Positions 1 through 61,627 of a stretch of DNA of 64,000 bases are shown here, piece after piece; positions within the stretch are counted from its first letter, which is position 1; the number at the start of each line of letters is the position of its first letter. Both the position numbers and the translations under genes were made by a program. The DNA is from Carcharhinus longimanus (taxonomy: Eukaryota): assembly GCA_030264375.1 (NCBI GenBank), contig JASCQW010000081.1, positions 93,422,445 to 93,486,444 of the forward strand. Reading direction: 5' to 3'. Below the pieces are notes generated by a model. That model saw only the letters and a list, made by a program, of their open reading frames with translations, was not told where the DNA came from and made no database searches.

Positions 1-123
1 CCTGAAAACTGAAAAAAAAGTATACGTTCTAACCAGAAAACTTCAATTGTCAATGTTAGATGTCCATTCAACTGCAATATTCTAAAGTTTCCAAAGAAAA
101 CTGAGAGAATACCGTGTGTTCTG

Positions 124-197
124 TTACACGGAGCCGTAGATCACTTCTGTTTTATCGGACTGTGCGCTACACCAGGGTGTTCCTTTTGTTTTTGTCC
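124..197 (-). CDS. Probable last coding exon, GTKTKGTPWCSAQSDKTEVIYGSV* (ITIM consensus VxYxxV)
   Basis: Acceptor gtctttctatttaatataccAG at 198-199; a phase-1 entry keeps frame to TAA at 126-124; possible donor (ACG|GTattc) after 113. Confidence 0.68.
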
Positions 198-3100
198 CTG
201 GTATATTAAATAGAAAGACAACAAACTAGTATTCTCATTGGCTTAAAAAAATGCAGCTCCTGTTTTGTTATCAGTCAAAATAAACACTCCTCCATTTTTT
301 TAATCGATAAAAGAGAACAAATATTAGATACATCACCTTCATTCTTCAAAACCAGCAGTTTCTCTGGGAAAAATAATTGAAAACAAGAAAGAAGTGAAGT
401 CATGCAAAACATAACTCACGAAAATCATACCTTAAGTTCATGAAGTACATTTGAAAACAAATAATGATACCATTTGAAAGTAAACTGAATATTTCAAAGA
501 AAATCGATACGTCATTTTGTTCTCACCGATATCTTTCTGAATGCCTATTAATGTTTCTCGTTCTAAATTAAAGGCAAGTATAATTATGTTAGGTGACAGT
601 ATTATTTCAAACATTCTATTTCGCCTCCAAAAGTGAGGTACAGTTGACCAGGAAGGAAATCAAACAGAAAAACACGGTCTATAAAACACTTCTTTTTTCA
701 TAAATAGTGGCAAGCTGTATTTTTAAGCTACTTCCTAAAAAAAATACTTCTGAATCATTAAATTAATTTTTCTTTCTCTTCCTTCAATGCAATGGTTAGA
801 TTCCTGATAGACTGATTTGACTCAACTTCGTCTTTCACGACTCAGATTATAAACTATGGAAAGGTACTGGAATCTGTTGATCATTCGATCTAAACATAAG
901 TTACGTGCAAATTGGGAACTTGAATGTGCTGGAGATCCAGAGAACATATTTCAACATTATAACGAAAATATCTGTTCTGTGGAAATCATGCACATATCTG
1001 GGATTTCTTTTGGAGCCTGTTATTGACACCTGGAGTATTATGTACAGTTCTGGTCTCCTTATTTGAGAAAGGATACACTGGCACTGGAGGGCGTGCAGAG
1101 GTGATTCACGAGTTTAATTCCGGAGTTGAGAGGGTTGGCTTACGAAGAGAGGCTGAGTAGACTGGGGCTATACTCATTGGAATTCAGAAGAATGAGGAGA
1201 GATCTTATAGAAACATACAAGAATATGAAGAAAATAGATAAGGTAGTAGCAGAGAAAATGTTTCCACTGGCGGGTGAAACTCGCACTAAGGGGCATAGCC
1301 TCAAAATAAGGGAAGCATATTAAGGACTGAGTTGAGGAGGAACTTCTTCACACAAAGGATTGTGAGTCTGTGGAATTTCCTGCCCAGTGAAGCAGTTGAC
1401 GCAACCTCAATGAATGTTTTTTTTTACGGCAAGGATAGATAATTTTTTTGAACAATAAAGGAAATAAGATTATGTTGAGCGGGCAGGTAAGTGAAGATGA
1501 GTGCACAAGAAGATCAGGCATGATTTGACTGAATGACGGAGCAGGTTCGAAGGGCCAGATGGCCTACTCTTGCTTCTATATCAACCGATTCCCCTTCCAG
1601 GAAACGTTCAGGCAAATCTTATCAAATGAAGTAATAAGGGATGATTTACCAGTCTTGGCTTCACGAATCATTGACTCTACATCGATAAACACGAGAAAAA
1701 CAGTAATTTTAAAATTTACCGTGCTAATATTACGATCTTTAAATGACAAAAGCAGTAGGTTTCCATTTTCCTCCGACATTAATAACTAATTACCAATGGT
1801 TTATCAATGTTCTTATTCAATTTTCCATGATGTCTGAGAGAATTATAATTTAGCCCAACACGTCTCTCTGTGTGCCATACAATAGCCCACATTATTTGCT
1901 CAACTAACTGTAGAGATTTTGCCTGGCTAGTTAATGCTGCTGTAAATAGAATCCCCCAAATTCCAGAATGTTAAACAACTGCTTAAAAATGTGTTTTCCT
2001 GCAACTGATTTTGGTAAGCTAATATTTGAAATACTCGGATCATTTTCAATTCCCACCTTCAGAAACGATAAAGGTACATTAGGTGTGATATGTTAATTAT
2101 TCACAAGAGTGGTACTGGGTTGAGATTATGCATCATGCGAGTGTTAATCAATTCAACCTGAAGTTGCTGAAGTTCAGAATAATGAGCAGAGATCTCATGT
2201 AAACAGAAATTATTCCACAAGGGGTTTGACAGAGTTTGGGCGTGTAGCCACGTGCCCCAAGTTGACAATTTAGATCACTGCTGTGCAATCCCGTGAGTAC
2301 TGAAATTAGTCAACATTGGTTCCATCACGGAATTATGAATAATTTGATTAGTTATGTTTGATCCTTATTAGTGCAGGGAAGTCATTTTTTTTTTCTCTCT
2401 CTCTCACTGAAACACCAGACATGAGCACATGGCGTATAAGATGATTTCAAGTCGATGATCGATCTTCATATTCCTGAATTGCCAAGCTGAAATGAGATGA
2501 TGTACGGTTTGCCCTTGTTTGCATATATTATCCTTGGTTTTTGTTTTAATGTTATTTGGCGATCAACATGCCGATGACAGTAAAGTAGAGATTGCTACTT
2601 TTTTTCCAGTTGGAATTTATTTTTCAATACAATTGTGTGGTGTTCAACTGCTCGGCCCACGATATTGTTCAAATTTAGCAAATTGCATGCACCGAGAAAT
2701 TCAATATCTGAGACGTTAGAAGTGGAAGTGTTGACAAAAGTAAACAGGAATGACTGCAGCAGCTGCTGAGATTCTACGCCACTATCCTGCAAAAAACAAA
2801 TCTAAATTGCTGCAAAGGGACAGAAACGACTGGGTATTGTTTAGCATAGTAACAATCCTTTTTTTGGAAAATATAGCTTCAGTCATAGTAAATATTTTCT
2901 CAGGTGGCCATTGACATCCAATTCTTGATCAAATACTGACAGGATGTCAAATGGAGTTCTCCCTCTGCTTGAATGCATATCTTACTTTTCACAAAGTGTA
3001 CAAATGGTATTGTGTGAACGGGAGCTCAGTGAAGAATTGTGATTGATGACAATTGCCACTTCCATTCCGTATTATTTTATCCCATGGCACGTGTTTTTGC

Positions 3101-6100: not shown

Positions 6101-9100
6101 AGTAATCAAATGTTTGTTCCTTTACTTTCCAAAGAAAAGGGATTGACAGCTTGCTCCAGGGGAGTTACGAAAAGGCTTTGGGCGCAGGTTCAGTTATCGA
6201 AAGATGCAAGATCAATTAGAATTGTAAGAAATGTTTCTGTTATTAACTAACTGAGTAAGTAGACTGATTCTGTGACTGGACCTGACAGATGCAATTTAAT
6301 AATGTACATATGAATTGTATATTAGTGAATTGTGTTAATGCTTTATTAGCTCTATGAGAGCTATCTCAGAGGGTTCGCCTCCAGTCGTTTCTCTGGGGTA
6401 GTACACTCCAAATCTTGAATCACGAATACACGATTCTAACATGCCCCCGAGTTCCTTGTACTCAGCCAGAAGAAGTCAACCACAATAATGATATACTGAA
6501 ATGCTATCTGAATTAATGTTTGGTTTCTTTCTAATTAATTCTGATATGTGTACTCTTCGACATTTTGCCTTCTTTGACTTCACCTCAGCTCTTCTCCGTT
6601 TACTCACCATCATCTTTCTTATGTCCTTCAAGTTCTAAACAGCATAATAATTGTAATGATATGAAGACAACGACATGATGCACGTCAAACTTTTGAAATG
6701 ACAAGTTATTGGCATAGCTTATGCAGAGACTCTTCATGGATAACAACAGAAAACACACGGATACGTTGATTTATTAAATTCACATATTGCTTAGATTTGG
6801 ATCCTTCTGGATGATGCGGAAGTGTAAATGTCTTTACGGAGAAAATTCAGGTAATGCTGCAAACTAGTTTTGTTCTTATTGATTTCTGAGAAAGTGTCAT
6901 GTTGTCAATGCCACTCATCTAGTACTCGTCAAGAGGGATTCGATTGAATAACAAATGTCAAAAATTACATCAATTACCCTCCATAAAGAAAAGATACTGT
7001 TATTTTTAGGACAATTGATATTTCATTGATAATGGCAGAGCTATGGAGAATGCAACAATGAACAATTAAATGTCAAGCCTTTGTTGTAATTCGACACTAG
7101 CAGGCGAACGAAGGTTGGCGAGAGCATTGTCATGAGGAAATGACAGAACATATGCATGCCCCAGGAAACAGGAACAATGCATGGACATTTTATTTGTAGT
7201 CGCAAACAACAGGCTCTCTTGTGACTGAATGTTTGTTGCTTCAACTGTGTAAGCTAAAAGCCATGCACACCCGACTGATAACCTTCAAATGTTTGTCAAT
7301 ATAATTCAGTGGTGATCATTATAATGCAGTCGGTGTTGACCAATTGTGCAAGCAGTTGTAATGTCGGGCATTGCGTTTCGGATTTTTCAATCATTTACAG
7401 GTTGGATGTGCTGATTATTTCACTACTGCGAACCACCGTATCTGTGTGTTCCCCCAGTCAACTGAACGCACAACCTATGCAGCTGGCAGCGTAGGAATAA
7501 TGATCTCCCTATACAGTACTCGTTTGCCTGGTAAGGTGAATGCCGTTTTGTTTGCTGTTGCTTTCCTGTTAGAGGGCAAACCCTCCTTCAATATCTTTCC
7601 AAACAACGATGGCAATTTCGGAATGAATTGTCACATAGATCACGAGTCATTTGTTTCCTCGGAGCGCATTTTATATTTTTGGTAGTTCCATTTTAAATAA
7701 TAATGGAGGTTGTGCCATTAAGCGCTTCCACGGCTAAATTAGGCACATGATCGATATGGAGGAAACTCAACATTGTTGTTGTCGGGGTTAATTTGATGTG
7801 CAGTAAATGCCAACATCAAATCCTCACTGTCCTTTCAAAGGAATGCAGTGTTAAAGGGTCGAAGTTATTTTTATTTGATTGCTCGTCTCTGTTTCCTTAG
7901 TGTTACCACCTATATTTAATAAGAAATGTCGGTATTCCGACACGCTATCGCGGAAATGAATTTACCTTCAGTTTTCTTTTGCAGCCGCCATTCTGTTGAA
8001 CAGGAAATGATCCAGAACTAGGGTTACTTAAAAAAAAGTGCATTGTTCAAGTCCTTGGGATAAATTGCTGGTCTGTCACATTTCTTTGCACTTGTTTTTT
8101 TTTTGTTTTGTTTTCAGTACTAGAACTTTGTCGGCTTCCATGGTTATTGTTGTATATGTTCACATATTTAACAAAAGAAACTTTTTTTCTCCCCTAGTTC
8201 ACCAATTTGCATCGTTTTGCCTCTGTGAATACACTCCAAACTTTGACTTAAAACACCATGTATTTAACTACATATTCCAAGATGCGACTTCAGTAGCACA
8301 GTGCCGGTGTTCTTCAACCATCTGTTCAGCTAAAGCGCTGGTTCTTCTCCTCGGTGAACATAGTTTATATAGCATCGTTTTGACATAAAAGAGGAACGGA
8401 GTTTAACAGACACTGCTTTATCACGAACATACTAATAATTGAAAGACCATTATTTTGACGATAATTAGTTGTTGCATTTGAATCCAGTTTTGCAGATCGC
8501 CAGAATTTTGACACTGTGTAAGTAATGCCTCCGGCAGTTGCTTATGTTGAGGTACTTTATTGAGAAGAGTAAGAGAAACATTATTTTCCATTTCTAGACA
8601 CTGTGGTTCAAATCACATGTCTTTTTTTCTTTTCTCCAAAATCAATCATAAACTGTCTCTGATTTGAATTACTTTAGTTATTGTTAGCACAAATGTACCG
8701 TGTTAAAGGTAAATGTTGCACAGATCTGTCGTGTCCTCCTTGGTTGTGACATATCTGAATGCCTTTGAATAAAAGCAAGATGAAGAAATGTCCATGTGTC
8801 GTGGCTATTTATTTCACTTTGCTTTTCTTCTCGAAACATGGCTTAAAATTCGTGAATTATTCACATATACCTGACGTCCAATATTACATGAATGATTGGA
8901 GAAAGCGTCAAGGTAAATAACCACGTGTAATGAATGTCATACTGAGTTAGGAATACGATTGTTAAGTGAATCAGTGAACGAAATTAATCTGCAATTCTGC
9001 ACCCATATCCATATAAATTGATAACACAACTGTAATTTAATTTGTGTTGGATATGAATATAAAGAAACATTAATGTTAGCGAGTTCCCTCATTTATTCGT

Positions 9101-9196
9101 CATGAACTATTTCATTGCATCAATTAGCAATGGCAGAGGATTATACATTATAAGACAAGGTGAACACGGTGTGTTGAGAAATATCCATTTTGTTGT

Positions 9197-9240
<44 letters not shown>

Positions 9241-12200
9241 GGCTTACTTACTTACCACAATCTTGTAGTTTGTCATTAAGTTTATCGATTTCTAAAAGAA
9301 AAACGTACTTGATCTTTCATTATGGTTATACGCGCTGTATCACAATTGCAACTATTACTTTTCACCTCAGCAGCTGGTGCACAGGAGAACTGATGTCACT
9401 AGAACGTTGTTTTTTTTTCTAATGAATTAATATGACAATAATGTTCTGCAGTTCCGTTTAACGGAACAAAATTGATAAACTCATATTTCTCCAAGCTATA
9501 ATGCACATGATATGCATATTCCAAATCACTAAGCTTCTCTAAGTTAGATAGAAATCGCCTTACTCTCCACATCACTCACATTCCCAGCAAACTTTTTGCC
9601 TTCGCGAAACGTGGACAAACTAAGTTTGATTCCCTGATCTAAATCATGAAAGTACATTTTGAGTAGCTCTGTGCCAACAACTCATCACTACGTGGCCAAA
9701 ATATTCACCGTCTGGCAGGTAGAAATAATATTTCTTTATCATTTGTGTTGCTTACTAATCCATTCTCAACCCATATCCATATGTTAGGCCCAACTTGGTG
9801 CATTTCAATGTTGCTAAAAACAAAATGATCAGAATTTTTTAATGAACTGTCTTTAAAAAAAGCATACCAAATCCTCTAGTTAGCTTTACATACTGTACGA
9901 ACTGAATCCTCCAAACCTCTAGTAGGATCGCAGTTCTCGGTTTCACTGAATTAATTCCATGTTGATTTTGCCTATTTGCTCGAGAGTTTCTTAGAAAACC
10001 TCATCCAGACTAGGAAATTTAGCCCCATACTCAGTCCTCAGCTGCTGTCAGACTTTCTTAGATTTCCCAGCATTTGTTTCAGCATTGCTTTAATTCCCAG
10101 CATGTGCAGTATTTTTTTTTTACTTGCGTTTCTTTCAATGTCCTCATAGAATATTCTTTACAATAGTGTCCCATATTTCCCAATTATTGAGTTCAGCCAT
10201 CAAGTCCATAATTCTCAGTTTTCTCCCGCCACTCTTCATAAGTCAAGTAGTTAATTTTGCCATTGATCCGAAGCCGTTGGAGAGATTCTAGAATCGCTCC
10301 AATCTTTGTAAGATGATAACCGACACTTTCAGAATTTCCAGTCTTAGCATCCTTCCATTCAATTGATCAGGTCCTTTGCCCTTTGGAATTACTGACGTTC
10401 TGGTTAATTCATTTCTGAAGCACTATATTTGTAGTAATCATAATTTCCTGCAATGTCTCCTTCGCGTGCACACTCGTTCACTTGCATTTATGTTAAGTTA
10501 TGTGCATCTTCAGCCACACACAAAAAAGCTTCTGTATTTTCGTAGTTTCCTTGTTTTGGCCATGTATTCACCAGATTCTGTTTAAAGAGGATCTGCAGTT
10601 GTATTCATTACTTTTGTTTTCTTATTTTCTGTATGCTTATAGCAGCTCCTGGAATCCACTGTAACTTAATAAATCAAACAATATCGGACGGTTTTCATTA
10701 AAAAAAAAAGTTGTTGGGAAAGAAAGCTCAAAATTTCTTACTGCATCCTTGCAGACAGAAACCAAATTATCGCTTCCAGTCCTTGTGACTCCACTGAACG
10801 ATTTACATAAAAATGCTGTTGTTAAAAGTGCATGCACTTTGAACAGTCACAATAGTTTTAAGAAAAGAGAAACGAATATATTGTAAGAATTAATCGGAAT
10901 CGGTTATATATTATCCGTATTGTTGGTTGAAAACTATGTTTGTATGAAATTCAAGTGCGAAAAATCTATAATTGTAGTTTTCACGTTGACTTGACGAATG
11001 TGTGAGAAGGTAAGGAATTATTCATTAAACTTTGTTTTAGGGTAACATTGTGTTATTCAGTGAATAAGGCGTTCTCGCTATGTGTTTATGTGGGCACGAT
11101 TTGACGTTGTGCTTAATGAGCTTGAACAGAAATATGATTCAAGTCTATATTTAGAGCCTGCAAAACCAATATTCCAATGTGTTATTCCTGAGCCACAAGC
11201 AAATTGGTAGAGATAATGATTTCAAAGAGTTTGGTCCGTGACACTTCGAGCACGGAAAACAGTTCTGGGGAACATAGAACAATTATTTTAGGATGAGCTT
11301 CACCTGAAGCGAGCTTGACTTAATATCTTGGACAATTTTACAGATTGAGTATAAATGGGTCCTTCACTAATTAGTATATAGAAGACACAATATCCGGTTT
11401 AAGCTGATGGAAATGTTGCACGTAAATGAAAAGATAAACAAAATGAATTCAGAGCGATGATGTGGCTAATGACAGTGTGGCACAGCGTGGAAGAACTATT
11501 ATTGGGTAAATATGTAGGGATATGGGGGTAGGACCTGGATGGGATTGTGGGCGATGCAACTGGATGGGTCGAATACGATTTCTACGATTCTACAATTTAA
11601 TTGTAGCCGGAAAAAACATAAGAAATATACGCAGTGGCAATCTGCGAAACTGAACAATCCATTAGGTGAAGATTAAATAGTTCAAAGACAAAGAAAAACA
11701 CGCTGGTCAAAATTATGTGTAGGCACTCTTTACCCGATGAAGTATAAATCAAGGCATGACGATAGCGTGTAATAATGCATGCCGATAATGATCGATACCT
11801 ATTTGACCAATATTGCTCGAATAACGAAGTCACTCACTGTATATTGTAACTCCGAAAGTTCAAACTTTAAACTTCACACTTTAAATCGACAAAGGCATGG
11901 ACAATATGCAGCCTTCGGATGTGGACATTGCACAATTCGCTTGACAGTTATTGACCATCTCCAATATCACTGCATCTAACCATTCTCCCTTGGAATTCAT
12001 TGAATTTACGATAGCTAATTACATAACGATCAACGCCCAGAACATTTCCATTGAAAATGAACTAAACTGCAATGAACATATATTTGAAATCGGTTCAAAT
12101 CATGGGAGGGGCTAGGATTTTGGAGCGATTCATTCAAAATCTGACTCCCGGAAATCTGCAAAAAATTTAAAAGTTACAAAGCGCTTGGTCATTGGTATGG

Positions 12201-15200: not shown

Positions 15201-18200
15201 CTAATTTCCTCTGAACATCCTGCTGCAGTATACCCGAAAGATTGCAATGCTAAACATAATTGAAGGGAATGGTTCGCCATATTAAGAACAACACATTCAG
15301 TCATCCTGGTTTTCTGTTGCAAGCTTAAGAGTAAGGATTACTAGTGTAGTGATATAATAAAAAAAAACTATTTCACTTCCATCAGCATTACTCACTTTCG
15401 TTGCAGCGGTTGCCAGCCAATTCTAAAACAGAATTATATTAGTGCTACAAAATGTCTTGCAACATATTGAAAAAGTATGACATGTAGTTTTGGGCGAGTT
15501 AAAAGAACACCGTTGAATAATACATATTATGTAATTAAATAAAATGTAATTTTTTTTTCCATTTTCACCTGCCTCCTTTTCACGTAGTTTATCTTCTGCA
15601 AACATGGGAAAGCGAAAACAGCATCGGTATTCTTGTAAAGCAACCATCATGTTTGGGTTACGCAGCCTCTAACTGGGTGCAAATCAAATCAGTTGCCTTA
15701 TTCCGGGTTATGGCGAAGTGAAGGAAACAAATTGCACCTGATTCTCAGAAGCGAGCAAATTCAGTAAATATATTTCGAATATTCCCTATTATTTTCGTTT
15801 TCCCTCCCCGTTTCTAATCTGCATTGTTTATTGATTCCGTAACTGGCAACCGCTGTATCAACGAACAAAATGCACTGGCCCGTCGTAAACGTTAGGTGCA
15901 TTAGATTAAACTGAGATTCGTAAACTCAAGAATTTTTAAATATCCACCGTCCAACTCCATATTCAATCGAAAGTCTGGAAATATTCGTATTGCCCCGTTT
16001 CACGTTGGAAATACTGTTTTACGATGTGACCGTGTGAGTCAAGTATCAATAAGAAACACACTGTTGAATAGTGCAATTAACATTAAACAGCTAAGCTGAT
16101 AGGTTTTATGCCATCTGTCTTTCTCACCTAAATCTTGGAGAGCCTTTTTCGTTTTCTTCAAATCTGGAATTCACAAGTAAAAGGCATCTGCTGTGGCACA
16201 CTATCGTCGGTCTCATATTTCTAGAGATTTCAGACTATCTTCTGACTGGATATTTTTGGAAACTTTTTGGCATTGCATACTTTATTGGAAAAATTCTGAG
16301 GATCATGAAGTGATGTGGCCTATAGATTTAGAAACTCACAAGTGAGCAGTCAAGCCTCTTTCTTGAGTACCTATTGACACCAGTTGAGCATTTCTAACTG
16401 TCAGCATAATTGCACAGATGAAAAACCTAATCGATCTGCACGTAATAAGGCAGGAGGATGAAAACTAGTTATTATTGTTGTAAATTATAGCGTTGACATT
16501 ATTAAGCGAGAGCCAGATAATGAACTAAAAGAGCATCATTTTGTGGTTTTAACCGTTCAAGAAAGTAGCTCACCACCACTTTCATAATTCACCGACGGTT
16601 GGACAACGCATGCTGGCTCAGTCAGCGAGATGCACGACATTAAGTTTTATTTTGTAAAGCTTGAGGTCCCAAACGTCAACTTCTGGAATCAATAAACAGA
16701 ACTTATAACCCTCATCCCGATAAAATCATATTTGCTTCCTTTCCAGTGAACTTATTCATTGACTTAACGTTAACTGCACCTAACTGCAAATTTACTATAG
16801 CACCTTCCCCCAAGATTGATATACAGGCTGGACATAATGGCACGTTTTACTTCTAATTTTATTCTTCCGAATAAGAATGTTTTTGGCAAGAGAAGGAAAT
16901 CCGGCGGGCAACCATTGGCTCCTTTCTTGGTTATGCACTGTTTAATTTAGGCGAAGAATATGGGCGATTAACGTGCATCAGGGCTAAAGAGGAAAAGGCG
17001 CCCTTTTCTCCATCTGAATTTAAAGGACACATAAAAAAAAAACATGGAACAGGAGTAGGTCACATTGCCCTTCGAAGCTGCTCCAAAATTATTATGAACA
17101 CTGCTGATTATTCCATTTTTAGTCAGCTTCTCCCTTCCCTCACTTATCATTTCATCCCCTTTGCTCCAAACAAAATCACATCTAACTTCTGCCGCAATGC
17201 ATACAACTATTTTCTCCTCCACTGCTTTCTGTTGTAACGAATTCCATAGAATAACACTGGCTGGGTGAATAAGTCTCTTCCCATCTCTGTCGTATATGAT
17301 TACTTGTATCCTTAGTCAATGAGCACATTTCAGGTTTCAGATACCTTCGGAAACATTATTCCCGTATGTGGCTTGAATTGTTTATGAGATGCTCTCTCAT
17401 TCATCAGAATTCAAGTAAATATAATCCTAACCGAATTCATCTCTGCCAGGAATTAGCCTGGTAAACATTTGATGCACTCTTTCAATTGTAAGAACATCGT
17501 TTTCTGTTAATAAGACCAAAACTGCGCAACATATTCCAAATGTAGCCTCACCAAGATCTGTATAATTGCAACAAGACATCCCGAGCCTGCATTCGAAACC
17601 TCCTGCTATGAAATCCAAAACACCACATGCCTTCTTGACCTGCTGCTGCACCTGAATGCTTACCTTCATTAACTGGTGTCTAGTGACACCCAGAATTCGT
17701 TGCATGTCCCTCTCTCTCAAATTGTAGTCTCAGGTAAAAATCAGACTCTTGTTGTTTTGCCACCAAACTTTACATTTATCCACATTGTACTGCACCTGCC
17801 ATGCACTTGCCCACTCATTCTGCTTGTGTAAACTTGAAGATACCACACATAATTCAGTCATTTCAATCAACAATATGAATTATAAATAGTTGTAGCCCAA
17901 GCACCGATACTTATAGTAATCCAGTTGTTACTGCCTGCCATTTTAAAAGAAAAGTTTTATTCATACTCGTTCCTCCCTTTCTGCCATCCAGTCTCTATTC
18001 ATCTCAATGCAAAACACTCACCCTCATGGGCTTTAATTATCTTGCTAACTTCTTATGCCAGATAATGCTGACAGCCTTCCAAGAGACCAAATGAACTGCA
18101 TTTTCTGGCTCCCCGCCGTTACAACTATCAGGTAAATCGGAGTTTTCCAATAGATTTTTGAATCATTATTTACCTTTAACAAATGCAAATCTCATACTCT

Positions 18201-51200: not shown

Positions 51201-54200
51201 GGTACACACTGTCATGCTGGACTCCTTTAAAAACAGTTGATTGGAGTTCAGCATCGGCATATTTCGTGAAAATGAAGGATAGAGATTCTAATATATGGGA
51301 AATTTGGATGACAAGAGAAGTTGTGTGGTGTGTCAAAAAGAAGAACGTGAGCCATGCATACATTTTAAGAAAGTGAAGGGAGACACAGACCTTGAACAAT
51401 ATAATAATAAAAATGTAGAAATATAAACCAAAAACAATGAACTAAAAAAAGAAAAAAAATGAACAAAAATGGCAAATAAAAATAAAAATATTAAAATAAT
51501 ACTAACTATATCTAGAATATCANNNNNNNNNNNNNNNNNNNNNNNNNNNNNNNNNNNNNNNNNNNNNNNNNNNNNNNNNNNNNNNNNNNNNNNNNNNNNN
51601 NNNNNNNNNNNNNNNNNNNNNNTGGCAGTGCATTCCAGGCCCCCACCACCCTCTGTGTGAAAAACCTCCCTCTAACATCCGAGTTATACCTCGCCCCCCC
51701 TCACCCTAAGCCCGTGGCCCCTCGTAATTATTGTATACAACCCAGGAAAAAAGCTTACCACTGTTCACTTTATCTATACCCTTCATAATCTTACACATCT
51801 CGATGAGATCTGCCCTCATTCGCCGCCTTTCTAAGGAGAACAGCTCCAATTTGCCCAATAATTCCGGTGTCCTTGGCAAACAGGATTAAAGAAATGCCCA
51901 AGACATTTCATGCGTAATTACCGAGTTAGAGGATAGCTCGGAAAGTGTTTTCTGCCAATAGGAAATTGATTCGATCTGTTGGGGACAACTGATATAAACC
52001 CATCTGCCAGCTGACTGGCCCAATCACAACCACTTTCTCCTAGATAATGAACGTGCGTTCCTTGACTAAAAATTCTGGAAAATGAGCTGGCGCTGCTTCC
52101 TCAGCAGCACTGAAGTAATCCGTTGGACTACACGTCATCACTGCCGACCATATCCGCAAGTAAATCATACGTTGCAAATCCGGAAAGCATTGTTGTTCAC
52201 GATAAAGTGTAATTATTCACTTTTCCGCTAATAAAAAAAAGGGGCACAAGACACGGCATCGTTCGACATCAAGCATATCAATTGTAATGAAGATAAAGTT
52301 GCACAAGTCCCAGATGACCATATCTGCTCTTCCCCTCAAAAAAGAGCGCTCAATTATGGTGATTTACCCAGATGGTCAGCATCCCTCAGGCAAGGGGCAA
52401 AGTTGAAAAGACATTCTGGCTGAATAATCTAAGCACATACAACATTCATCCCGCTCATTACAAACCAGCCGATTCTGCTATCTGACCGATAATAATAGCT
52501 GCAGACGTAATGGAAGATTTCATTGAGTTAAACCATGCCTGCATTTGAGTCCAAGTGATCCGATTATCAGCAACTATTCGGTGTTGTGCCAGAGAAGAAA
52601 ATGTAGCGAACGTGTTCAAGTGGACGTGTTAGTATACTTGTAAGGATAGCCATTTGGGGAAACTGATATATTTTGTTAAAATAGTTCGCATTGGAAAATA
52701 TTGTGGATGCAAATTGGAAATTATGACGACTGCTCTCGGTTCGCAAATTCATTTATTTTATTAAGAATGCAATGAAGTTAACAGTAAAAATCCTCAACTG
52801 GATTAATGCTGGCTCTTCAAACTTTTTTCTACAACAGTTTGTCTCATTTGTTTCTATGGAGGTGCAGGGATGTTTTGATCTTGAGTCTCGCAATCCATTC
52901 CAATGTTGAAACTTCCGCAGTCTAAGTGACAGCGCGGTTACCAAACACTGATCTTGTCGGGAGCAGGCTCATATTGTGGGGTGTGTTGGAAATTAAGCTT
53001 TGAGAGAGATGCGTGAGTGGGTCGTGGCTATATGCCAGTCACAATCTAAAACCTACTTTGCCATCTTCCTGTGGAATTCGTGGTTGTACAGTTCGTTGCC
53101 ATTCCTGGAGTGATTGAACCAAGTCGTGTTTTCCTTGGAATAGTTTGACCTGAGACTATCTAATAAACATAAGTTATCTTTCTGTGTCTGTGAAGATGTA
53201 GGTCAGTCTGGAAGGTTTCAATGGAAGGAGGGTTGTTGTCAGAATCGAGAGCTCGAATGTGGCCAAATGGTATTTATATTAAAGGCGGTATCAAATTATT
53301 AACTTGATTTTTTTGGTCTGGCTATCATTCCATCTCAGCGAATTCCAAAGGAAAGAAGAGTGCGTTTGCTTCAAAAATGTTGGCATATAATTCCACATCC
53401 ACCGTGACTTTGCATATTAATTGTCCCCAGTTTCAAACATTCGCCACTATACAGAACCCAGTTTGATTATGCTGAAGGTATATAGCTCCGACATCATTAA
53501 TGCTTTCAGTCACATTTTCCTTCCGCCAGATAACAAGCTCAAGGCCACGGAAATGTTGATCTGTCAAAAGGCCCAGGAAGTGAAGAAAACAACTTTACTC
53601 CGAAAAAAAAAGATAAATTGGATTTCTGTAAAGTGTGTTTGGGGACTGGATTCATAGCGATATTTTTAGAGTCAATCTTTCGTTAAACAAAAGTTTTCAG
53701 CACATCTGCGATCCATCTTCAAACCAACGAAGTGCTAAATACATGGGAAAAATAAAGCATTAAATAACGTTGGACTAAACAGGTGAAAATTGCAGCCTCT
53801 TTATGAGCTGGAACAGACCAAGCTTTATTGTGTCTTTTCTCTTGAATATATCCTCGGCGTGAAATAGTTTTCTTTATTTCACTCCTACACCCCACAACTG
53901 CTGACGCAAATTATTGGAAATGGAATTGACATGAGTTATTTACTCACTTGTATGCTCCTTAAGTGTTTTGATTTCTGTGGAAGGGGCGTGAAATCATTAA
54001 AATAATGCATGAAAAGGAAGACCACCAAATTAAATTGAGAATACTGCTGATACTGATTGCCAAACAAAAACATTAAATGCGCCGAGCTCTGACAAAGGGT
54101 TATCCTGATAGGAAAACTTGGCTCTATTCTATCTGTCAGATACTATCAGACCTACATTTTATGGGATTTATGTGCTGGTCAATTATGCCCTTCAATTTCT

Positions 54201-57200
54201 GGAATCAGTTCACAATGGAGTCATGAACTAAACGGAAAATGGAACGCTCAACAATGAGTGAAGTTCTCCAGAGTATTCAACAACAAATTAGAATAAAAAT
54301 CTCGAGAGTTCTAAGTGAGAATAAAATGTTACAATCGAAAATCGCACGGTACTTATTAGTGATAAGAGGTGGCTATGCAAGTTAACGTTAAATCTATATA
54401 TCCAGTTCCATCAACTGACGAAAATTAAAATCATCACCAAGGATACTGAATGGAAATTCATGCAAATATACAGGTACTTGACTTTATTCAGGCGTTTGTC
54501 GGGAAGGTCGACTGCTCGGAAAAACACTTTTCGACTTTAATTCAACAACAAACACATCATATGTTCTGTCTGACTTAATAAATAATGCTCCAGGAATAAT
54601 GTGATAATAGCAGAGAAGTATTTCAGGGTAAATGAAATCTACTTCCCTTTTTAGTCGACAGGTTAATTGTAAATTAGTGCTAGCATATTTGGTGCACGAT
54701 GTGGCAATCCGATGAAGACAAAAAAAATCCAATGAAAGTTTTGCTGTTGCGAGAAAATGTGGCAAAAATGCATAAGATCACTGCGGCCGAATCATTATAT
54801 AGGTGCTGTATGTGTATATGACGGGAGGACGGCATTGGTGGTGGTGACAGAGATGTACATGTCCATGATGATGCGGCTAGGCATTATGGCCGCCGTACTC
54901 AACACACGAAGAAATCAGATTATTTCAGTATCAGTGCCGAATAATTAAAACGTGCGCGTGCATGCGTGAGTGCCTGCTTGCTTGCGTGAGTTCATGCGTG
55001 CGTATGCGATTCTTTGTGCCTTTGTCTCTTTCTTTGTCTGTGAGAGATTGAATACATTAAGATTCATTCAAATGGTATTCGATGAAACAAGAAAGATCAA
55101 ACACTCTGGTTTCATCTTGTAACAGAGGTATTTTGGCTTGAATGAAGATTTTTTTTTTTACCGTCATCTCTGGAACGTAGAACGTCAGCTGCAGAAAAAT
55201 ATGCGCAGGACAATCAATTTTTATACACATTGAGTGAAGTTTATTTTCGTACATTTGTATCGAAGGCGTCTGAAATGCATACATGATGATGCAGTTAGGC
55301 ATTATGACCGTCAGGCTCAACGCACGAAGAAATCAGATTATTTCAGTATCAGTGCCAAATGAAGCGAACAAAAAAAAAATCGTGTGGATAGGAAATGGCA
55401 ATTGTTAATTGTTTAGACGAGTCTGGTGAAACATATAAACTACAGCACAAACAGGCCCTTCTACCCACAAGTTGCGCCGAAAATTTCCCTACCTACTAGG
55501 CTTACCTATAACCCTCTATCTTACTAAGTTTCATGTACTTATCCAAAAGTCTCTTAAAAGACCCTATCGAATCCGCCTCCACCAACACTGCCGGCAGCCG
55601 ATTACACACACCCACCTCCCTCTGAGTGAAAACCTTACCCTGACATCTCCTCCAAACCTACGCCCCAGCACCCTAAACCTGTGTCTCTTGTGGCAGCCAT
55701 TTCAGCCCTGGGAAATGCCTCTGAGAATTCACTCGGCTAGTACCTGTCATGATCTTATGTCCCTCTATCAGGTCACCTCTCATCTTTCATCTCTCCAAGG
55801 ATGAAAGACTTGATCTCTCTCACCCTATCCTCAAATCGCATGCCACCCAATCCAAACAACCTTGTAAATCTCTTCTGCACCCTTTCTCAGGCTTCCTCAT
55901 TCTTTCTGTAATGAGGCGACCAAAACTGGGCACAGTACCCCAAGTGGGCTCTGACCAGGGTCTTATATACTGAAGCATTATCTTCCGACTCCTAAACTCA
56001 ATTCTTCGATTGATGAATGCCAGTACACCATACACCTTCTTAACCACAGCCTCTACCTGCGCAGCTGCTTTGAGCGTCCTATGAACCCGGACTCCAAGAT
56101 CCTTCTGATCTTCCACACTGCCAATAATCTTACACTTAATATTATATTTTGTCATCCTATTTGACCTGCCAAAATGAANNNNNNNNNNNNNNNNNNNNNN
56201 NNNNNNNNNNNNNNNNNNNNNNNNNNNNNNNNNNNNNNNNNNNNNNNNNNNNNNNNNNNNNNNNNNNNNNNNNNNNNNNNNNNNNNNNNNNNNNNNNNNN
56301 NNNNNNNNNNNNNNNNNNNNNNNNNNNNNNNNNNNNNNNNNNNNNNNNNNNNNNNNNNNNNNNNNNNNNNNNNNNNNNNNNNNNNNNNNNNNNNNNNNNN
56401 NNNNNNNNNNNNNNNNNNNNNNNNNNNNNNNNNNNNNNNNNNNNNNNNNNNNNNNNNNNNNNNNNNNNNNNNNNNNNNNNNNNNNNNNNTCCCCCCGCGA
56501 TCCCACGCCCCCTCACTTTCTCAATAAGCCTCGCATGGGGCACGTTATCAAACGCCTTCCTGAAGTCCATATAAACTGTGTCTTCCTTCATCGATGTGTT
56601 TAGACACATTCTCAAAAAAATCAGTCAGGCTTGTGAGGCATGATGTGCCTTTAACAAAGCCGTGCAGACTATTCTTGATCATACAATGCCTCTCCAAATG
56701 TTCATAAATCCTGCCTCTCAAGATCTTCTCCATAAACTTATCAACCACTGAGGTTAGACTCACTGGTCTATAATTACCTGGGCTATCTCTTCTCTCTTTC
56801 TTGAATAAAGGAATCACATCTGCAATCCTCCAATCCTCCAGAACCTTCCCTGTCTCCAACGGTGACGCAAGGACCATTGCCAGAGGCTCAGCAATCTCTT
56901 CCCTCACCTCCCACAGTAACCTGGGGCACATCCCATCCGGGCCCAGCAACTCATCTGGCTTGATGTTTTTCAAAAGCACCAACACATCCTCTTTCGTGAT
57001 GTCTATATGCACAAGCTTTTCAGTCTGCTGTAAGTCTGCACTAAAACCACCACGATTCTTTTCCACTGTAAATACTGAAGTAAAGTATTCATGGAGTACC
57101 TCTGCTACTTCTATTGGTTCTATACAAACTTTCCTACTGTCACACTGATAGGTCCTATTCCTTCACGTCTTATCCTCTTGTTCTTCACATACTTGTAGAA

Positions 57201-60200: not shown

Positions 60201-61627
60201 CAGGAAATTTGAAGTAAGTGTCTTGACCAATATTAAAATACAAATAATTCTTGAGACAAAATACAGTACTGTACCAGCATTCTGTAGTCTTTCCATTAGG
60301 TTTTCGATTTCTTGTGAGAGTATCATGAAGAAGAGGGATGGTTAGTATATTATTCTGCTAATGCATTCAGCCTACGCTGAATGAGTTCTGGCTGCAAGCA
60401 GGTCATATGTACTTCAGGCATAATTGGAGTTCCTATGCCCCAAATGCCTTCTCCTCCGATAGATAACGTTCGACAGTCCCTGGTTAATTCTCGCAATTAT
60501 CTACCTGCAATGAAGATAGAATGATGCACTACGCGGTTAGCAAATAATGTTTCAGTTATTAAATCAAAAATAAAATCGTGCAGTTTTGCAGAAAATTGTT
60601 GCACCGGGGTCACTTGACAAGAAATTAAATACTTGTCGGCACATTTCCCTTTATTAAGGGAACGTCTGAGCCAGCCATTGGCCGCTTATAGAACTACAAA
60701 TAATGTTACCAATTGGTGAATTAAAATCAGAAGCCAAGCTTTGGATTGATAACTGTGTTCACGCTGTTCTATCGTTTTAGTATAGTTGTTTAGTTATTCG
60801 TTTCGATACAGTGCAGAAGGTGAATGATGTTCGTAGGTACAGTCATCCTGGCAGACATGCGTAACAAGATGGCAGCAAAGATCAGAGACAAAATTAAGTC
60901 CTGACGTAGGGCAAAGCTTCACTGAAAATTTTGCCCATGAAGCATTGGTTCAGCGCAATATGCTAGGGCATTAGAAGGGGTGCGTAAGTTTTTGAAACAA
61001 TGACAGAGATACGCCTTGAAGACGACCAGCGTTTTACATGTTTCTGAGGAAAGCTGGTTTGATAAAGGCGCAGTGGTGTTTCTGATCGAAATATTTCAAT
61101 ATTGACTCTAATATTTCATCTACTGACCACGATGTTACTTATTAATCATGCACATGCATATAAATAACGGTTTGTGAAAAGATAAGAAGATTCTGTGCGC
61201 ATTGTGTTTTCATTCCAAACTACTTGGACGAACTAATTTGCTTTTGCATTTGTTTATCTTCACGTATATCATCAGAAGGTATATAGGAACACGGGTTAAA
61301 TTTCGAATTTTGTTTTTTTTTTCCAAGGGGGAATTATGGAGTGTGGAAATGACGGAAAATATGCTTTTGCTAGATTTGTTTTGTTTTGCTGACATCTGAA
61401 ATGTTCTTTTTCCACATTCAATTTAGTGTAAGTGTGGAGATGCCTGTTCCATCACGAAATACTGAACTGAAGACTTAAAGACTTGGGTCATTTACTGAGC
61501 AGTGGTCATTTATAATGAACCAAAATTGATGCTTATGCTTTATTAAACTTTAAAACCTGAACTATTACCACGTGATGTTTTAAAATTCGAATTCATTTAC
61601 CAATGTCCTTGGCAAGTAGTTGTCTCA
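124..61627 (-). CDS. Partial (5'-truncated) multi-exon gene: coiled-coil region built from >=19 phase-1 microexons plus a terminal ITIM-like exon; candidate butyrophilin/BG-like receptor tail
   Basis: 19 short segments, each bounded by a pyrimidine tract+AG and a GT donor on the minus strand. All lengths are multiples of 3, all are phase 1-1 and stop-free, they are mutually homologous, and they encode heptad-patterned E/K/L-rich peptide. The last coding exon ends in VIYGSV-TAA. Confidence 0.85.
337..363 (-). CDS. 27-nt microexon, EKLLVLKNE
   Basis: caattatttttcccAG|AGAAACTGCTGGTTTTGAAGAATGAAG|GTgatg. Confidence 0.82.
527..562 (-). CDS. 36-nt microexon, ERETLIGIQKDI
   Basis: cttgcctttaatttAG|AACGAGAAACATTAATAGGCATTCAGAAAGATATCG|GTgaga. 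Confidence 0.85.
1020..1582 (+). mobile_element. CR1-clade LINE 3' fragment (HER1-like)
   Basis: ORF 1126-1323 (LAYEERLSRLGLYSLEFRRMRRDLIETYK) is the CR1 ORF2 C-terminus; 3' UTR gggccagatggcctactcttgct. Confidence 0.9.
1650..1676 (-). CDS. 27-nt microexon, ESMIREAKT
   Basis: tttttctcgtgtttatcgatgtAG|AGTCAATGATTCGTGAAGCCAAGACTG|GTaaat. Confidence 0.78.
3190..4170 (+). mobile_element. Rex1/Babar-type LINE, decayed 3' portion
   Basis: RT motifs (GAPRGCFL...YSLFTND; FVDGITIG...DYRTEIDNVVDWCDENN); ends in aataaatcaaatcaa-type tail shared with 21945. Confidence 0.8.
4480..5672. mobile_element. Penelope-like element with inverted terminal arrangement (left arm -, right arm +)
   Basis: GIY-YIG remnant (SYIGKTMQ...RMNRHCATI) at 5057-5251; 4480-4830 is the reverse complement of ~5290-5640. 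Confidence 0.85.
5940..6300 (+). mobile_element. Highly decayed CR1 RT fragment
   Basis: Remnants of VDVVYMDF and KWQMQFN-coding sequence (gacagatgcaatttaat). Confidence 0.5.
6608..6634 (-). CDS. 27-nt microexon, ELEGHKKDD
   Basis: attatgctgtttAG|AACTTGAAGGACATAAGAAAGATGATG|GTgagt. Confidence 0.85.
7966..7992 (-). CDS. 27-nt microexon, EWRLQKKTE
   Basis: tcatttcctgttcaacAG|AATGGCGGCTGCAAAAGAAAACTGAAG|GTaaat. Confidence 0.85.
9200..9235. repeat. (CA)n microsatellite
   Basis: Perfect AC run, 20 nt downstream (minus strand) of the 9256 exon donor. Confidence 0.97.
9256..9291 (-). CDS. 36-nt microexon, (K/E)IDKLNDKLQDC
   Basis: cgtttttcttttAG|AAATCGATAAACTTAATGACAAACTACAAGATTGTG|GTaagt. Confidence 0.9.
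11470..11596 (+). mobile_element. HE1-type SINE remnant (head fused to tail)
   Basis: gtgtggcacagcgtgg head; gggtaaatatgtagggatatgggggtaggacctggatggg tail; ttctacgattctac terminal repeat. Confidence 0.6.
12850..13413 (+). mobile_element. CR1 LINE 3' end (contains N gap)
   Basis: VVNLWYSLPVEVVEG...FRSRLDRFL; tail ggcctactcctgctcctatttcttatgttctta. Confidence 0.9.
15396..15422 (-). CDS. 27-nt microexon, ELAGNRCNE
   Basis: aattctgttttAG|AATTGGCTGGCAACCGCTGCAACGAAA|GTgagt; same class as ELEGHKKDD. Confidence 0.8.
15569..15595 (-). CDS. 27-nt microexon, EDKLREKEA
   Basis: ttcgctttcccatgtttgcAG|AAGATAAACTACGTGAAAAGGAGGCAG|GTgaaa. Confidence 0.85.
16128..16163 (-). CDS. 36-nt microexon, DLKKTKKALQDL
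   Basis: ccttttacttgtgaattccAG|ATTTGAAGAAAACGAAAAAGGCTCTCCAAGATTTAG|GTgaga. Confidence 0.85.
17390..18190 (-). mobile_element. Decayed CR1 ORF2 fragment
   Basis: ORF 17427-17720 (ILGVTRHQLMKVSIQVQQQVKKACGVLDFIAGGFE). Confidence 0.85.
19190..19920 (-). mobile_element. Decayed CR1 ORF1 (esterase) remnant
   Basis: Colinear similarity with 58315-59100 (e.g. gtaccaatgtgcaccacgaccactggc...gggaggcaacataccattctggag). Confidence 0.6.
20424..21945 (+). mobile_element. Rex1/Babar-type LINE RT and 3' end, frameshifted
   Basis: FKKTTI..PKK, LQFA, IYKFAHDITVVGRISNN, NISLNVNKTK motifs; tail caataataaatcaaatcaaat. Confidence 0.88.
21950..22590 (-). mobile_element. Possible very old Penelope-type (GIY-YIG end) remnant
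   Basis: Weak resemblance only; no intact motif. Confidence 0.3.
26211..26237 (-). CDS. 27-nt microexon, (N)QQIRDNET
   Basis: gcactgataatacAG|ATCAGCAAATACGCGACAACGAGACAG|GTaaaa; resembles EDKLREKEA exon; pyrimidine tract weak. Confidence 0.72.
26430..26770 (-). mobile_element. RTE-clade LINE 3' fragment
   Basis: Minus frame SSVLPRARSPTLRTLTIQDMRCWTGHVLDISDKLFRKQI resembles the RTE C-terminal 'LRWAGHV.RM.D.RLPKQI' motif. Confidence 0.65.
26883..26918 (-). CDS. 36-nt microexon, DAEELKRELDRK
   Basis: ccttccgatttcggctacAG|ATGCTGAAGAATTGAAACGAGAGCTGGATCGAAAAA|GTgagt. Confidence 0.85.
27140..27378 (+). mobile_element. CR1 3' UTR fragment
   Basis: gaatgctggagcaggttcgacggggcagatggc...ttcttatggtcttatg tail. 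Confidence 0.75.
27770..28020 (-). mobile_element. Decayed tRNA-derived SINE
   Basis: acagagcgcccgg...cacgcagacgggaggaacgtgcaaactccgcacag central domain on the minus strand. Confidence 0.6.
28420..28783 (-). mobile_element. HE1/V-SINE-type SINE with internal 48-bp tandem duplication
   Basis: Head gggcggcatggtgtcacagtagttagcactgctg at 28783; duplicated unit starts at 28473 and 28521. Confidence 0.9.
30300..30760 (+). mobile_element. Very decayed CR1-group LINE 3' fragment
   Basis: Colinear with the reverse complement of 31170-31600. Confidence 0.5.
31030..31630 (-). mobile_element. CR1-group LINE 3' end
   Basis: ORF 31179-31394 (AAVYIIYEIHCRNS..LPNARPLPSGRLRAAD..TFTEAGSKP); typical shark LINE 3' UTR. 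Confidence 0.75.
32740..33362 (+). mobile_element. CR1 LINE 3' fragment
   Basis: SKTRGHRLEVK, QLPEVVVD motifs; tail gggccgaagggcctgtttccatgttgtaaacctctataactcta. Confidence 0.88.
33955..34200 (+). mobile_element. tRNA-derived SINE, 5' part
   Basis: ggcacagttgcacagcgagtggcactgctg...cccgggttaaattccggc (A/B boxes), ggaatttgcgcattctcccc. Confidence 0.8.
34313..34610 (+). mobile_element. Penelope-like RT fragment joined to terminal repeat
   Basis: NAIHALKTNRNIVIKPADKGGAIVIMNRRDY (Penelope RT signature), then the PLE terminus cacctgacgaag...aaataaa...cctggtgttgt. Confidence 0.88.
36672..36960 (+). mobile_element. tRNA-derived SINE with a distinct 3' tail
   Basis: ggtggcacagtagcacaatg head, tctgcgtgggtt core, ggagtgtgaagactcgggg..cacagtaatttcatcgcagtgt tail. 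Confidence 0.75.
37738..37764 (-). CDS. 27-nt microexon, EIKQLKLDS
   Basis: gttgtatttacAG|AAATAAAACAGCTTAAACTGGATAGTG|GTgagt. Confidence 0.85.
37870..39880 (-). mobile_element. CR1 LINE ORF2 (RT) about 2 kb, decayed
   Basis: ORFs 39530-39739, 39170-39400, 38626-38865 and 38342-38668 are successive CR1 ORF2 segments. Confidence 0.92.
40651..40672. repeat. (AT)n microsatellite
   Basis: atatatatat run. Confidence 0.95.
40745..40771 (-). CDS. 27-nt microexon, AELLLLKDE
   Basis: ctgtcttcttcattAG|CGGAGCTGTTGCTTCTGAAGGATGAAG|GTaaac; 20/27 nt identical to 337-363. Confidence 0.87.
40926..40961 (-). CDS. 36-nt microexon, EQEKLEQIRKDV
   Basis: cgttgttttcAG|AACAGGAAAAATTGGAACAAATTCGTAAGGATGTCG|GTaaga; paralogous to 527-562. 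Confidence 0.87.
41330..42965. mobile_element. Penelope-like element as a long inverted pair (left arm -, right arm +)
   Basis: ORFs 41771-42151(-) and 42104-42399(+) encode the same GIY-YIG-proximal region; the terminal repeats at 41330 and 42920 are reverse complements. Confidence 0.88.
44005..44028 (-). CDS. 24-nt microexon, (N)SVTDREK
   Basis: ctttttaaatctgacatcAG|ATTCCGTGACTGACCGTGAGAAAG|GTaaat; phase 1-1; positional counterpart of 1650-1676. Confidence 0.6.
47222..47380 (+). mobile_element. Decayed SINE head
   Basis: ggcacgttggttagcactgctgcctcagagctccaggg. Confidence 0.6.
47561..47910 (-). mobile_element. Young CR1 pieces flanking an N gap (3' tail and endonuclease segment)
   Basis: acataagaacataagaaataggagcaggagtaggcc tail; DLLGKSDHCMVEF...NRGEYGRMREELANVDW. 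Confidence 0.85.
48012..48340 (+). mobile_element. HE1-type SINE
   Basis: gggggcacattgactagcattgctgcctcatagcc...ctggttcaattc head; ctcgatgaaccaagtgaagtccttctgtactgta tail. Confidence 0.75.
49950..51400 (+). mobile_element. Decayed CR1 endonuclease region interrupted by a SINE (~50785-51095)
   Basis: IATIML, VVVGDFDFPYI and PDLVLQNE motifs; SINE head gcagtagttagtactgttgcctcacagtgcc. Confidence 0.8.
51623..51860 (-). mobile_element. CR1 3' fragment
   Basis: ggcagtgcattccaggcccccaccaccctctgtgtgaaaaacc. Confidence 0.8.
53948..53974 (-). CDS. 27-nt microexon, EIKTLKEHT
   Basis: gccccttccacAG|AAATCAAAACACTTAAGGAGCATACAA|GTgagt; paralogous to 37738-37764. Confidence 0.85.
54864..55356. repeat. 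75-bp direct repeat pair (54864-54938 / 55282-55356)
   Basis: catgatgatgc.g.taggcattatg.cc....ctcaac.cacgaagaaatcagattatttcagtatcagtgcc occurs twice, 418 bp apart. Confidence 0.9.
55162..55188 (-). CDS. 27-nt microexon, ADVLRSRDD
   Basis: atatttttctgcAG|CTGACGTTCTACGTTCCAGAGATGACG|GTaaaa; phase 1-1. Confidence 0.8.
55431..59640 (-). mobile_element. Near full-length CR1 LINE (5' UTR, ORF1 zinc finger + SGNH esterase, ORF2 APE + RT), inactivated; same orientation as the host gene
   Basis: ORF1: CCSQCRM..HICAG and VVCLPVAG..HTGTTDIG..GLHLHPRG; ORF2: VVAITETW, DFNFPNIDW, GPDG..PRLL, NYRPVSLTS, YMDFRKAFD; frameshifts and N gap. Confidence 0.93.
57430..57575 (+). mobile_element. SINE core fragment nested in the CR1
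   Basis: ttgcacattctcc...tctgcgtgggtttcctcggggcgctccgatttcctcccacagtccaaagatg. Confidence 0.8.
60275..60310 (-). CDS. 36-nt microexon, EIENLMERLQNA
   Basis: cttcttcatgatactctcacaAG|AAATCGAAAACCTAATGGAAAGACTACAGAATGCTG|GTacag; 25/36 nt identical to exon 9256-9291; AAG acceptor is weaker. Confidence 0.75.
61601..61627 (-). CDS. 27-nt microexon, (V)RQLLAKDI
   Basis: tcatttttctgcAG|TGAGACAACTACTTGCCAAGGACATTG|GTaaat; phase 1-1. Confidence 0.8.

Follow-up and report, generated by a model that had tools for sequence, protein, structure and literature searches.

The window analysed here, 64,000 nucleotides of the forward strand of contig JASCQW010000081.1 (hereafter C81; positions 93,422,445-93,486,444) in the 2.68-Gb genome of Carcharhinus longimanus, carries part of a minus-strand micro-exon array that is almost certainly real. 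On balance, we lean towards reading the window as an internal slice of a much larger array (block B) that would encode an elasmobranch coiled-coil-B30.2 rod protein, soluble, without Ig, transmembrane (TM) or RING parts, and serving as an innate sensor or scaffold. Positions marked 'rel' are counted from window base 1 and, the gene being on the minus strand, higher values lie upstream. The DNA examined extends from rel -40,000 to 934,000, continuous save for N stretches (36 kb within the 790 kb of block B), plus further samples downstream.

A sequence-only reading had proposed 19 minus-strand segments of 24, 27 or 36 nt, bounded by AG and GT, phase 1-1 and stop-free, and all were re-found between positions 337 and 61627 (12 of 27 nt, 6 of 36 nt and 1 of 24 nt; 564 nt in total). 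Joined, they translate to 187 aa (about 188 had been proposed) with no stop and a hydrophobic periodicity of 3.5; the power at this period is 3.63, compared with a mean of 1.0 and a maximum of 2.3 in 200 shuffles. When the window was scanned for splice sites, the minus strand had more stop-free phase-1 segments than the plus strand at each length (18 vs. 2 for 27 nt, 10 vs. 6 for 36 nt and 11 vs. 4 for 24 nt). Across 944 kb, with a splice score of at least 6, the minus and plus counts were 54 vs. 3 for 27-nt and 46 vs. 4 for 36-nt segments, with a weak excess for 21-nt segments (7 vs. 4). Among minus-strand segments scoring at least 4 in the same 944 kb, 88 of 94 (27 nt) and 68 of 74 (36 nt) were open in phase 1, as against 49 and 42, and 23 and 39, respectively, in the other two frames. 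A cross-validated exon classifier, for which the 944 kb were split into alternating 50-kb blocks for training and testing, called 142 exons on the minus strand (70 of 27 nt, 66 of 36 nt and 6 of 24 nt) vs. 2 on the plus strand; its sensitivity, measured on the window exons, was 14/19.

The individual exons were placed by the splice scan, by the classifier and by alignment to P0165, a catshark protein of 945 aa found by a profile search built from 11 family B30.2 domains. P0165 consists of a 770-residue coil and a B30.2 (PRY-SPRY) domain and lacks Ig, TM and RING domains; its only Pfam match is SPRY. In transcript order, the window exons are as follows.

61601..61627, minus strand: 27-nt phase 1-1 coil exon; splice scan and classifier, in a 47-aa gap-free run on P0165, 27/47 identical
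60275..60310, minus strand: 36-nt phase 1-1 coil exon with weak splice sites; classifier, same 47-aa run on P0165 as 61601..61627
55162..55188, minus strand: 27-nt coil exon; splice scan, classifier and P0165 alignment
53948..53974, minus strand: 27-nt coil exon; classifier and P0165 alignment
44005..44028, minus strand: 24-nt coil exon, a weaker call; opens a 37-aa gap-free run on P0165, 17/37 identical
40926..40961, minus strand: 36-nt coil exon with a second possible donor after 24 nt; classifier and P0165 alignment
40745..40771, minus strand: 27-nt coil exon; classifier and P0165 alignment
37738..37764, minus strand: 27-nt coil exon; classifier and P0165 alignment
26883..26918, minus strand: 36-nt coil exon; classifier, placed in the exon chain on P0165
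26211..26237, minus strand: 27-nt coil exon, a weaker call; adjoins 26883..26918 on P0165 in the chain
16128..16163, minus strand: 36-nt coil exon; classifier, 29-aa gap-free run on P0165, 17/29 identical
15569..15595, minus strand: 27-nt coil exon; classifier and P0165 alignment
15396..15422, minus strand: 27-nt exon; splice scan and P0165 alignment
9256..9291, minus strand: 36-nt coil exon; classifier, opens a 68-aa, 7-exon gap-free run on P0165 659-726
7966..7992, minus strand: 27-nt coil exon; classifier and P0165 alignment
6608..6634, minus strand: 27-nt coil exon; splice scan, P0165 chain and alignment
1650..1676, minus strand: 27-nt coil exon; P0165 chain and alignment
527..562, minus strand: 36-nt coil exon; classifier, 7/11 identical to P0165
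337..363, minus strand: 27-nt coil exon, the lowest in the window; classifier, 6/8 identical to P0165

The exon that follows 337..363 is also of 27 nt, lies about 3.6 kb below window base 1 (rel -3,575) and is identical to P0165 at 5/8 residues. A further 36-nt segment, 51795-51830, was dropped as an exon, not being called by the classifier; it resembles what we take to be a common LINE stretch. Many 27-nt exons (15569-15595 and similar ones upstream) have tandem acceptors three bases apart that could give 24-nt forms. Four sequence runs matching window 1-17000 are contig sets that cover introns and exons alike, with no joint between exons among the matches listed, and are uninformative on expression; for window 1-200, no RNA run was listed.

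The exon lengths, the phase and the heptad profile support the earlier proposal that 9- and 12-codon phase-1 symmetric modules encode a long coiled coil in a chondrichthyan gene. A 36-nt exon and a 27-nt exon together contribute 12 + 9 = 21 codons, i.e. three heptads. In the 36-nt exons (n = 60), positions 2, 5, 9 and 12 are hydrophobic in 95, 92, 85 and 67%, respectively; in the 27-nt exons (n = 62), a hydrophobic residue occupies position 4 in 84%, and lysine is found at position 7 in 44. In the 21-residue tandem unit, the a/d positions are 2/5, 9/12 and 16/19, with the conserved lysine at the remaining core position; 36-27-27 runs, in which the register is shifted, are also present. Because all exons are phase 1-1 and multiples of three, any exon can be skipped or duplicated without a frameshift.

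Window exons align with P0165 in four gap-free runs in genomic order, with 27/47, 17/37, 17/29 and 32/68 identical residues (46-59%); the first of these starts at an exon 8 kb above the window. The 68-aa run scored 161, a value reached by none of 300 exon-order shuffles (mean 54.5, maximum 137), whereas five other coiled-coil proteins scored 25-51, P0001 scored 24 and P0008 scored 76. The exon-chain score was 388 for P0165, 189 for reversed P0165 and 135-180 for other coils; as this control is not clean and the excess over reversed or unrelated coils is only about twofold, we rely on the gap-free runs. The 9- and 12-residue coil modules are homologous to those of the P0165 family and stand in the same order. 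Judged from these alignments, homology of the array to an elasmobranch coiled-coil-B30.2 family appears highly probable.

Tandem duplicates with homologous flanks, both duplications being recent, are present at rel 446,000-493,000 and 874,000-885,000, and most exon changes in them alter a residue. Over 22 non-independent pairs, the divergence was 0.21 in the flanks and 0.19, 0.16 and 0.29 at the three codon positions. In residues, the duplicated exons change nearly as quickly as the flanks and show weak constraint, a point against the rod-protein reading. Such weak constraint, together with the weak splice sites of some exons and the fact that no ends were found, would also suit a dead or dying array that has lost its ends and is no longer translated. 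We consider this very unlikely, however, since the phase-1 frames are kept far over chance (88/94 and 68/74), copies with flanks diverged by 11-32% still agree in exon length, heptad positions and splice sites, and the window exons match a catshark protein at 46-59% identity without gaps.

Every close homologue found is from a shark, ray or skate. The direct homologues are catshark P0165 and P0001-P0003, electric-ray P0008 and its isoforms, and P0034, P0039 and P0158; their annotations are automatic and span 267-945 aa, compared to at least 1,318 aa in the called exons of block B alone. The suspicion of mis-annotation proved justified: relatives go by the names 'TRIM39-like' or 'zinc-binding protein A33-like', although by Pfam P0001, P0008, P0165, P0158 and P0034 contain SPRY only, without Ig, RING or B-box. 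The annotated starts look incomplete; in P0158, P0034 and P0032, where they are hydrophobic, we read them as intron sequence taken in by the annotation and not as signal peptides. Between annotated isoforms of catshark and of electric ray, the differences are whole blocks of 9 and 6 residues; models of this kind could hardly be predicted from DNA alone, and we infer that they rest on transcripts. When the coil of P0001 was compared with longer proteins, none of 4291 candidates matched, and the P0165 coil gave no usable match in the protein atlas. A literature search of largely open-access papers listed none on a shark coiled-coil-B30.2 family.

Two further arrays of the same exon kinds, both with a terminal B30.2 exon of the same subfamily, flank block B on C81. 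Block A, directly upstream, ends in an intact SPRY/B30.2 exon (rel 844,102-844,728, minus strand, E = 4.5e-12); its closest longer relatives are the catshark proteins P0001-P0003 ('TRIM39-like', without RING or B-box), with B30.2 domains 66% identical. P0003 maps exon by exon on block A, including a contiguous run of 33-24-27-27-48 nt, and electric-ray P0008 is an orthologue with the same layout as P0001-P0003. In block C (C81 91.99-92.46 Mb), 1.4 Mb downstream, such exons precede a B30.2 exon (minus strand, 91.99 Mb) which is the best genomic match of the P0165 B30.2 domain (63% identical, same subfamily).

Block B itself is far larger than the 62 kb originally proposed, running from about 789 kb upstream of window base 1 (rel ~789,000) across the whole window and at least 26 kb beyond its lower end (rel -26,400), i.e. 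at least 815 kb. The 127 exons called in rel 1-790,000 amount to 3,954 nt or 1,318 codons; scaled by the 14/19 sensitivity, they give an estimate of about 170 exons. Exons are unevenly spread, with 2-14 in each 50 kb. In the DNA examined, block B showed no first exon, no last exon and no CpG island that would mark a promoter. A genome search gave no SPRY/B30.2 match between 91.99 and 94.27 Mb, and neither a B30.2 frame nor another clear exon was seen in the 10 kb beyond the last block B exon (2.8 kb of it N). Below the window, two candidate exons have lengths that suit the P0165 register, but their sequences do not match it (scores -9 and -5). Most likely, block B finishes with a B30.2 coding exon that lies in an N stretch or further downstream. 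Inside block B, a proline-rich open stretch of about 500 nt with plausible splice sites (rel 319,371-319,888, minus strand) is either an exon or a repeat.

P0165 may, on sequence comparison, be the orthologue of block B, of block C or of a joined B+C. In the last case, blocks B and C, perhaps with A, would form one transcription unit of about 2.2 Mb, with the window exons spliced across a long exon-poor stretch to the 91.99-Mb B30.2 exon or with the B30.2 exons as alternative ends. The two blocks are on the same strand with no other B30.2 in between, P0165 bears both window-like runs and the block C B30.2, and the exon preceding its block C-like end is closer to the window than to block C. However, four samples at 92.61-93.25 Mb (22.6 kb) contained no exons, compared with eight in three samples at 92.13-92.45 Mb, a thin sampling that favours a break between B and C; block C repeats modules also present in B, which fits paralogy; and no exon was called in the 55-kb gap between blocks A and B, nor in rel 790-850 kb as a whole. 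A joined unit is therefore unlikely. The opposite reading, that block B consists of several shorter tandem genes with their first and last exons missed, draws on the uneven exon density, on a recognisable 27-nt exon pair that recurs several times along the array and on the length of annotated relatives (295-945 aa). Block B showed no match to B30.2, Ig or RING and no CpG island, and the recurring pair occurs three times in P0165 and is thus no mark of a gene boundary; tandem genes are, accordingly, distinctly unlikely.

The array had been interpreted as the tail of an Ig-superfamily inhibitory receptor, with leader, IgV/IgC and TM exons expected beyond position 64000. The upstream DNA was scanned and no receptor exons were found: in 944 kb (36 kb of block B being N), tblastn with 162 proteins including shark butyrophilins detected no Ig exon, and Ig regular expressions matched chance frames only. 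Seven TM candidates in the 944 kb were rejected, none having a receptor-exon context, and no leader-exon candidate was found between blocks A and B. IgC matches come no nearer than 90.2 and 99.7 Mb, with none between 90.3 and 99.7 Mb; for the V-set, of which 150 of 928 candidates were scored, the closest lie at 89.6 and 98.4 Mb. No RING match was found between 91.82 and 94.75 Mb; the nearest upstream on the minus strand is a broken RING/B-box exon at 94.75 Mb. This exon (C81, minus strand), which contains a stop and a frame change, is probably a TRIM pseudogene.

In pairwise BLAST comparisons of six family B30.2 domains, the median bits were 112-135 inside the family, 73-92 with 24 Ig-bearing proteins and 71-87 with 18 TRIMs, which suggests that the family B30.2 is a group of its own, about equally far from butyrophilins and TRIMs. 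A BG- or butyrophilin-like membrane receptor without the ITIM, with leader, Ig and TM exons far upstream or in N stretches, would account for the BG-like exon design (PMC5938342, PMC8813856), for the true butyrophilins in the same cluster and for the incomplete look of the homologue starts. We hold it to be improbable, given that 944 kb yielded neither an Ig nor a convincing TM exon, that no family member scanned has an Ig domain and that the family B30.2 is about as close to TRIM domains as to those of butyrophilins. Without RNA support, the claim of an inhibitory receptor is best given up.

The ITIM of the proposed receptor came from a putative terminal exon at 124-197. This segment does translate to a 23-residue tail ending in VIYGSV and a stop, as had been claimed; as a terminal exon, however, it finds no support, being mostly the antisense of a dispersed repeat, and the homologue continues with a coil exon. 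The repeat piece is the following.

86..184, plus strand: inverted 5' piece of a dispersed repeat, antisense to which is most of 124-197; read as outside the gene

Window 86-175 has matches at five dispersed places (76-79% identity), the plus strand of the window aligns to repeat copies over about 100 bases, and window 151-184 (34 nt) is a 100% identical inverted copy of the sequence that opens the repeat body about 2.1 kb below the window. The repeat body has 1396 candidate copies, of which 40 were scored (75-78% identity apart from itself). From its motifs, the repeat is probably a LINE endonuclease region; its frames gave no match in Pfam or among solved structures (PDB). The layout would fit a twin-primed 5' inversion, although the 34-nt inverted copy could be a local assembly artefact beside an N stretch. 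The acceptor score of 124-197 is only 1.3, and ITIM-like endings arise by chance in 33 of 1574 minus-strand and 41 of 1371 plus-strand acceptor-to-stop frames (2-3%). When P0165 was followed past exon 337-363, the 27-nt exon at rel -3,575 scored +24 and the proposed ITIM tail -12; that the catshark homologue runs on into the next 27-nt exon is the strongest argument against this tail as the main end. Thus, the ITIM exon is very probably spurious as the main end, and a minor exonised form with 124-197 may exist. In chicken BG1, an ITIM was gained via a fixed intron read-through, as described in PMC5938342.

A secreted coiled-coil-B30.2 protein with a phase-1 leader exon was also weighed, modelled on the teleost proteins P0166-P0168 (1,620-1,630 aa), which exist and start with a hydrophobic stretch. 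Their B30.2 domains, however, share only 26-29% identity with the family, the window run scores 38-51 on their coils compared with 161 on P0165, and no leader candidate precedes block B, leaving this reading with hardly any plausibility. P0166-P0168 themselves, which carry uninformative names and, at 1,622-1,629 aa, combine a hydrophobic start with a very long coil and B30.2, could possibly form a separate secreted family.

Under the soluble-rod reading, the block B exons, when joined, would yield a rod of at least 1,300 residues and about 200 nm or more, the rise of a coiled coil being 0.15 nm per residue. The product would be a cytoplasmic rod, probably a parallel dimer, with two B30.2 heads for ligand binding together at one end, as in TRIM and butyrophilin coils; its length would change through exon skipping and tandem duplication. 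Innate-immune sensing or scaffolding would be its likeliest use, given the location in the TRIM/butyrophilin cluster and the fast-changing residues. A more far-reaching version, which we regard as rather doubtful, would have one unit of 0.8-2.2 Mb with about 170-400 interchangeable 27/36-nt exons, encoding a rod of hundreds of nm with a B30.2 tip and a repertoire of spliced lengths, as a third ancient branch beside butyrophilins and TRIMs and independent of bird BG.

The C81 neighbourhood of the window is a TRIM/butyrophilin cluster. In genome searches, 54 of 107 B30.2 matches (85.9-102.0 Mb) and 8 of 24 butyrophilin IgC matches (85.9-102 Mb) fall in this part of C81, and many RING exons lie in the same region as the B30.2 cluster. 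These counts and the symmetric split-codon micro-exons bear out the suggested kinship with butyrophilin, BG and TRIM in design and neighbourhood. Butyrophilins and MHC class I share one chromosome in several cartilaginous fishes, according to PMC12841164.

As characterised in PMC8813856, BG proteins comprise IgV, TM and many heptads, and butyrophilins IgV, IgC2, TM, few heptads and B30.2. The exons encoding BG tails are 21 nt long and number 13-36 per gene in one haplotype (PMC4046983), with up to 38 repeats according to PMC5938342; a soluble BG tail, 'zipper protein', affects actin-myosin interaction (PMC4046983). The array resembles chicken BG in its long coil made from many small symmetric split-codon exons, in tandem duplication and in its position beside TRIM genes, at least as these sources describe BG (PMC5938342, PMC4046983, PMC8813856). 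It differs in exon length and number, BG having 21-nt exons (few of 18/24 nt) at 13-38 per gene whereas the array has 27/36-nt exons, at least 127 in block B; moreover, BG heptads follow IgV and TM exons and are not accompanied by B30.2, whereas in the shark family no Ig or TM was found and the proteins end in B30.2. This C-terminal B30.2 after heptad exons is seen in blocks A and C and in the homologues; for block B, no end was found in the DNA examined. With butyrophilins, the family shares a heptad region followed by B30.2 and the same gene cluster (PMC8813856, PMC12841164); however, BTN/BTNL have IgV, IgC2, TM and few heptads, and none of the IgV-IgC2-TM set was found here.

TRIM-B30.2 proteins (TRIM39, A33) have a coiled coil and a C-terminal B30.2 and lie in the same cluster, but no RING or B-box is present in the family members scanned, and the shark coil is many times longer and built from micro-exons. 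Enterophilins of the rodent gut are soluble proteins with many heptads and B30.2, and are much shorter. They are set beside the array by description, not by sequence, as a resemblance only; an interaction of enterophilin-1 with SNX1 is reported in PMC13749957. The array is thus BG-tail-like in gene design and, on the features tested, falls outside BG, butyrophilin and TRIM.

These observations point to a hidden, elasmobranch-wide family in the TRIM/butyrophilin cluster, wrongly named and probably truncated by automatic annotation; its three arrays at C81 91.99-94.34 Mb are nearly invisible to ORF finding. The design, a two-exon, three-heptad module at several times the scale of a BG tail, keeps the B30.2 that BG lacks. 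It bears on the origin of coil-plus-B30.2 immune proteins in early jawed vertebrates and on the question of B30.2 domains without a receptor, raised in PMC8813856, and is a natural test case for the splicing of hundreds of micro-exons set in large introns.

Elsewhere in the genome, six further B30.2 exons close to the B30.2 subfamily of the array family lie on C119 at 6.3-11.3 Mb, possibly a second cluster of micro-exon genes. Within the window, positions 41435-42809 form a 1.4-kb palindromic element of nested inverted repeats (arms of 288, 81, 56, 117 and 39 nt), related pieces of which also occur at 4473-5656; this element is probably a non-autonomous DNA transposon.
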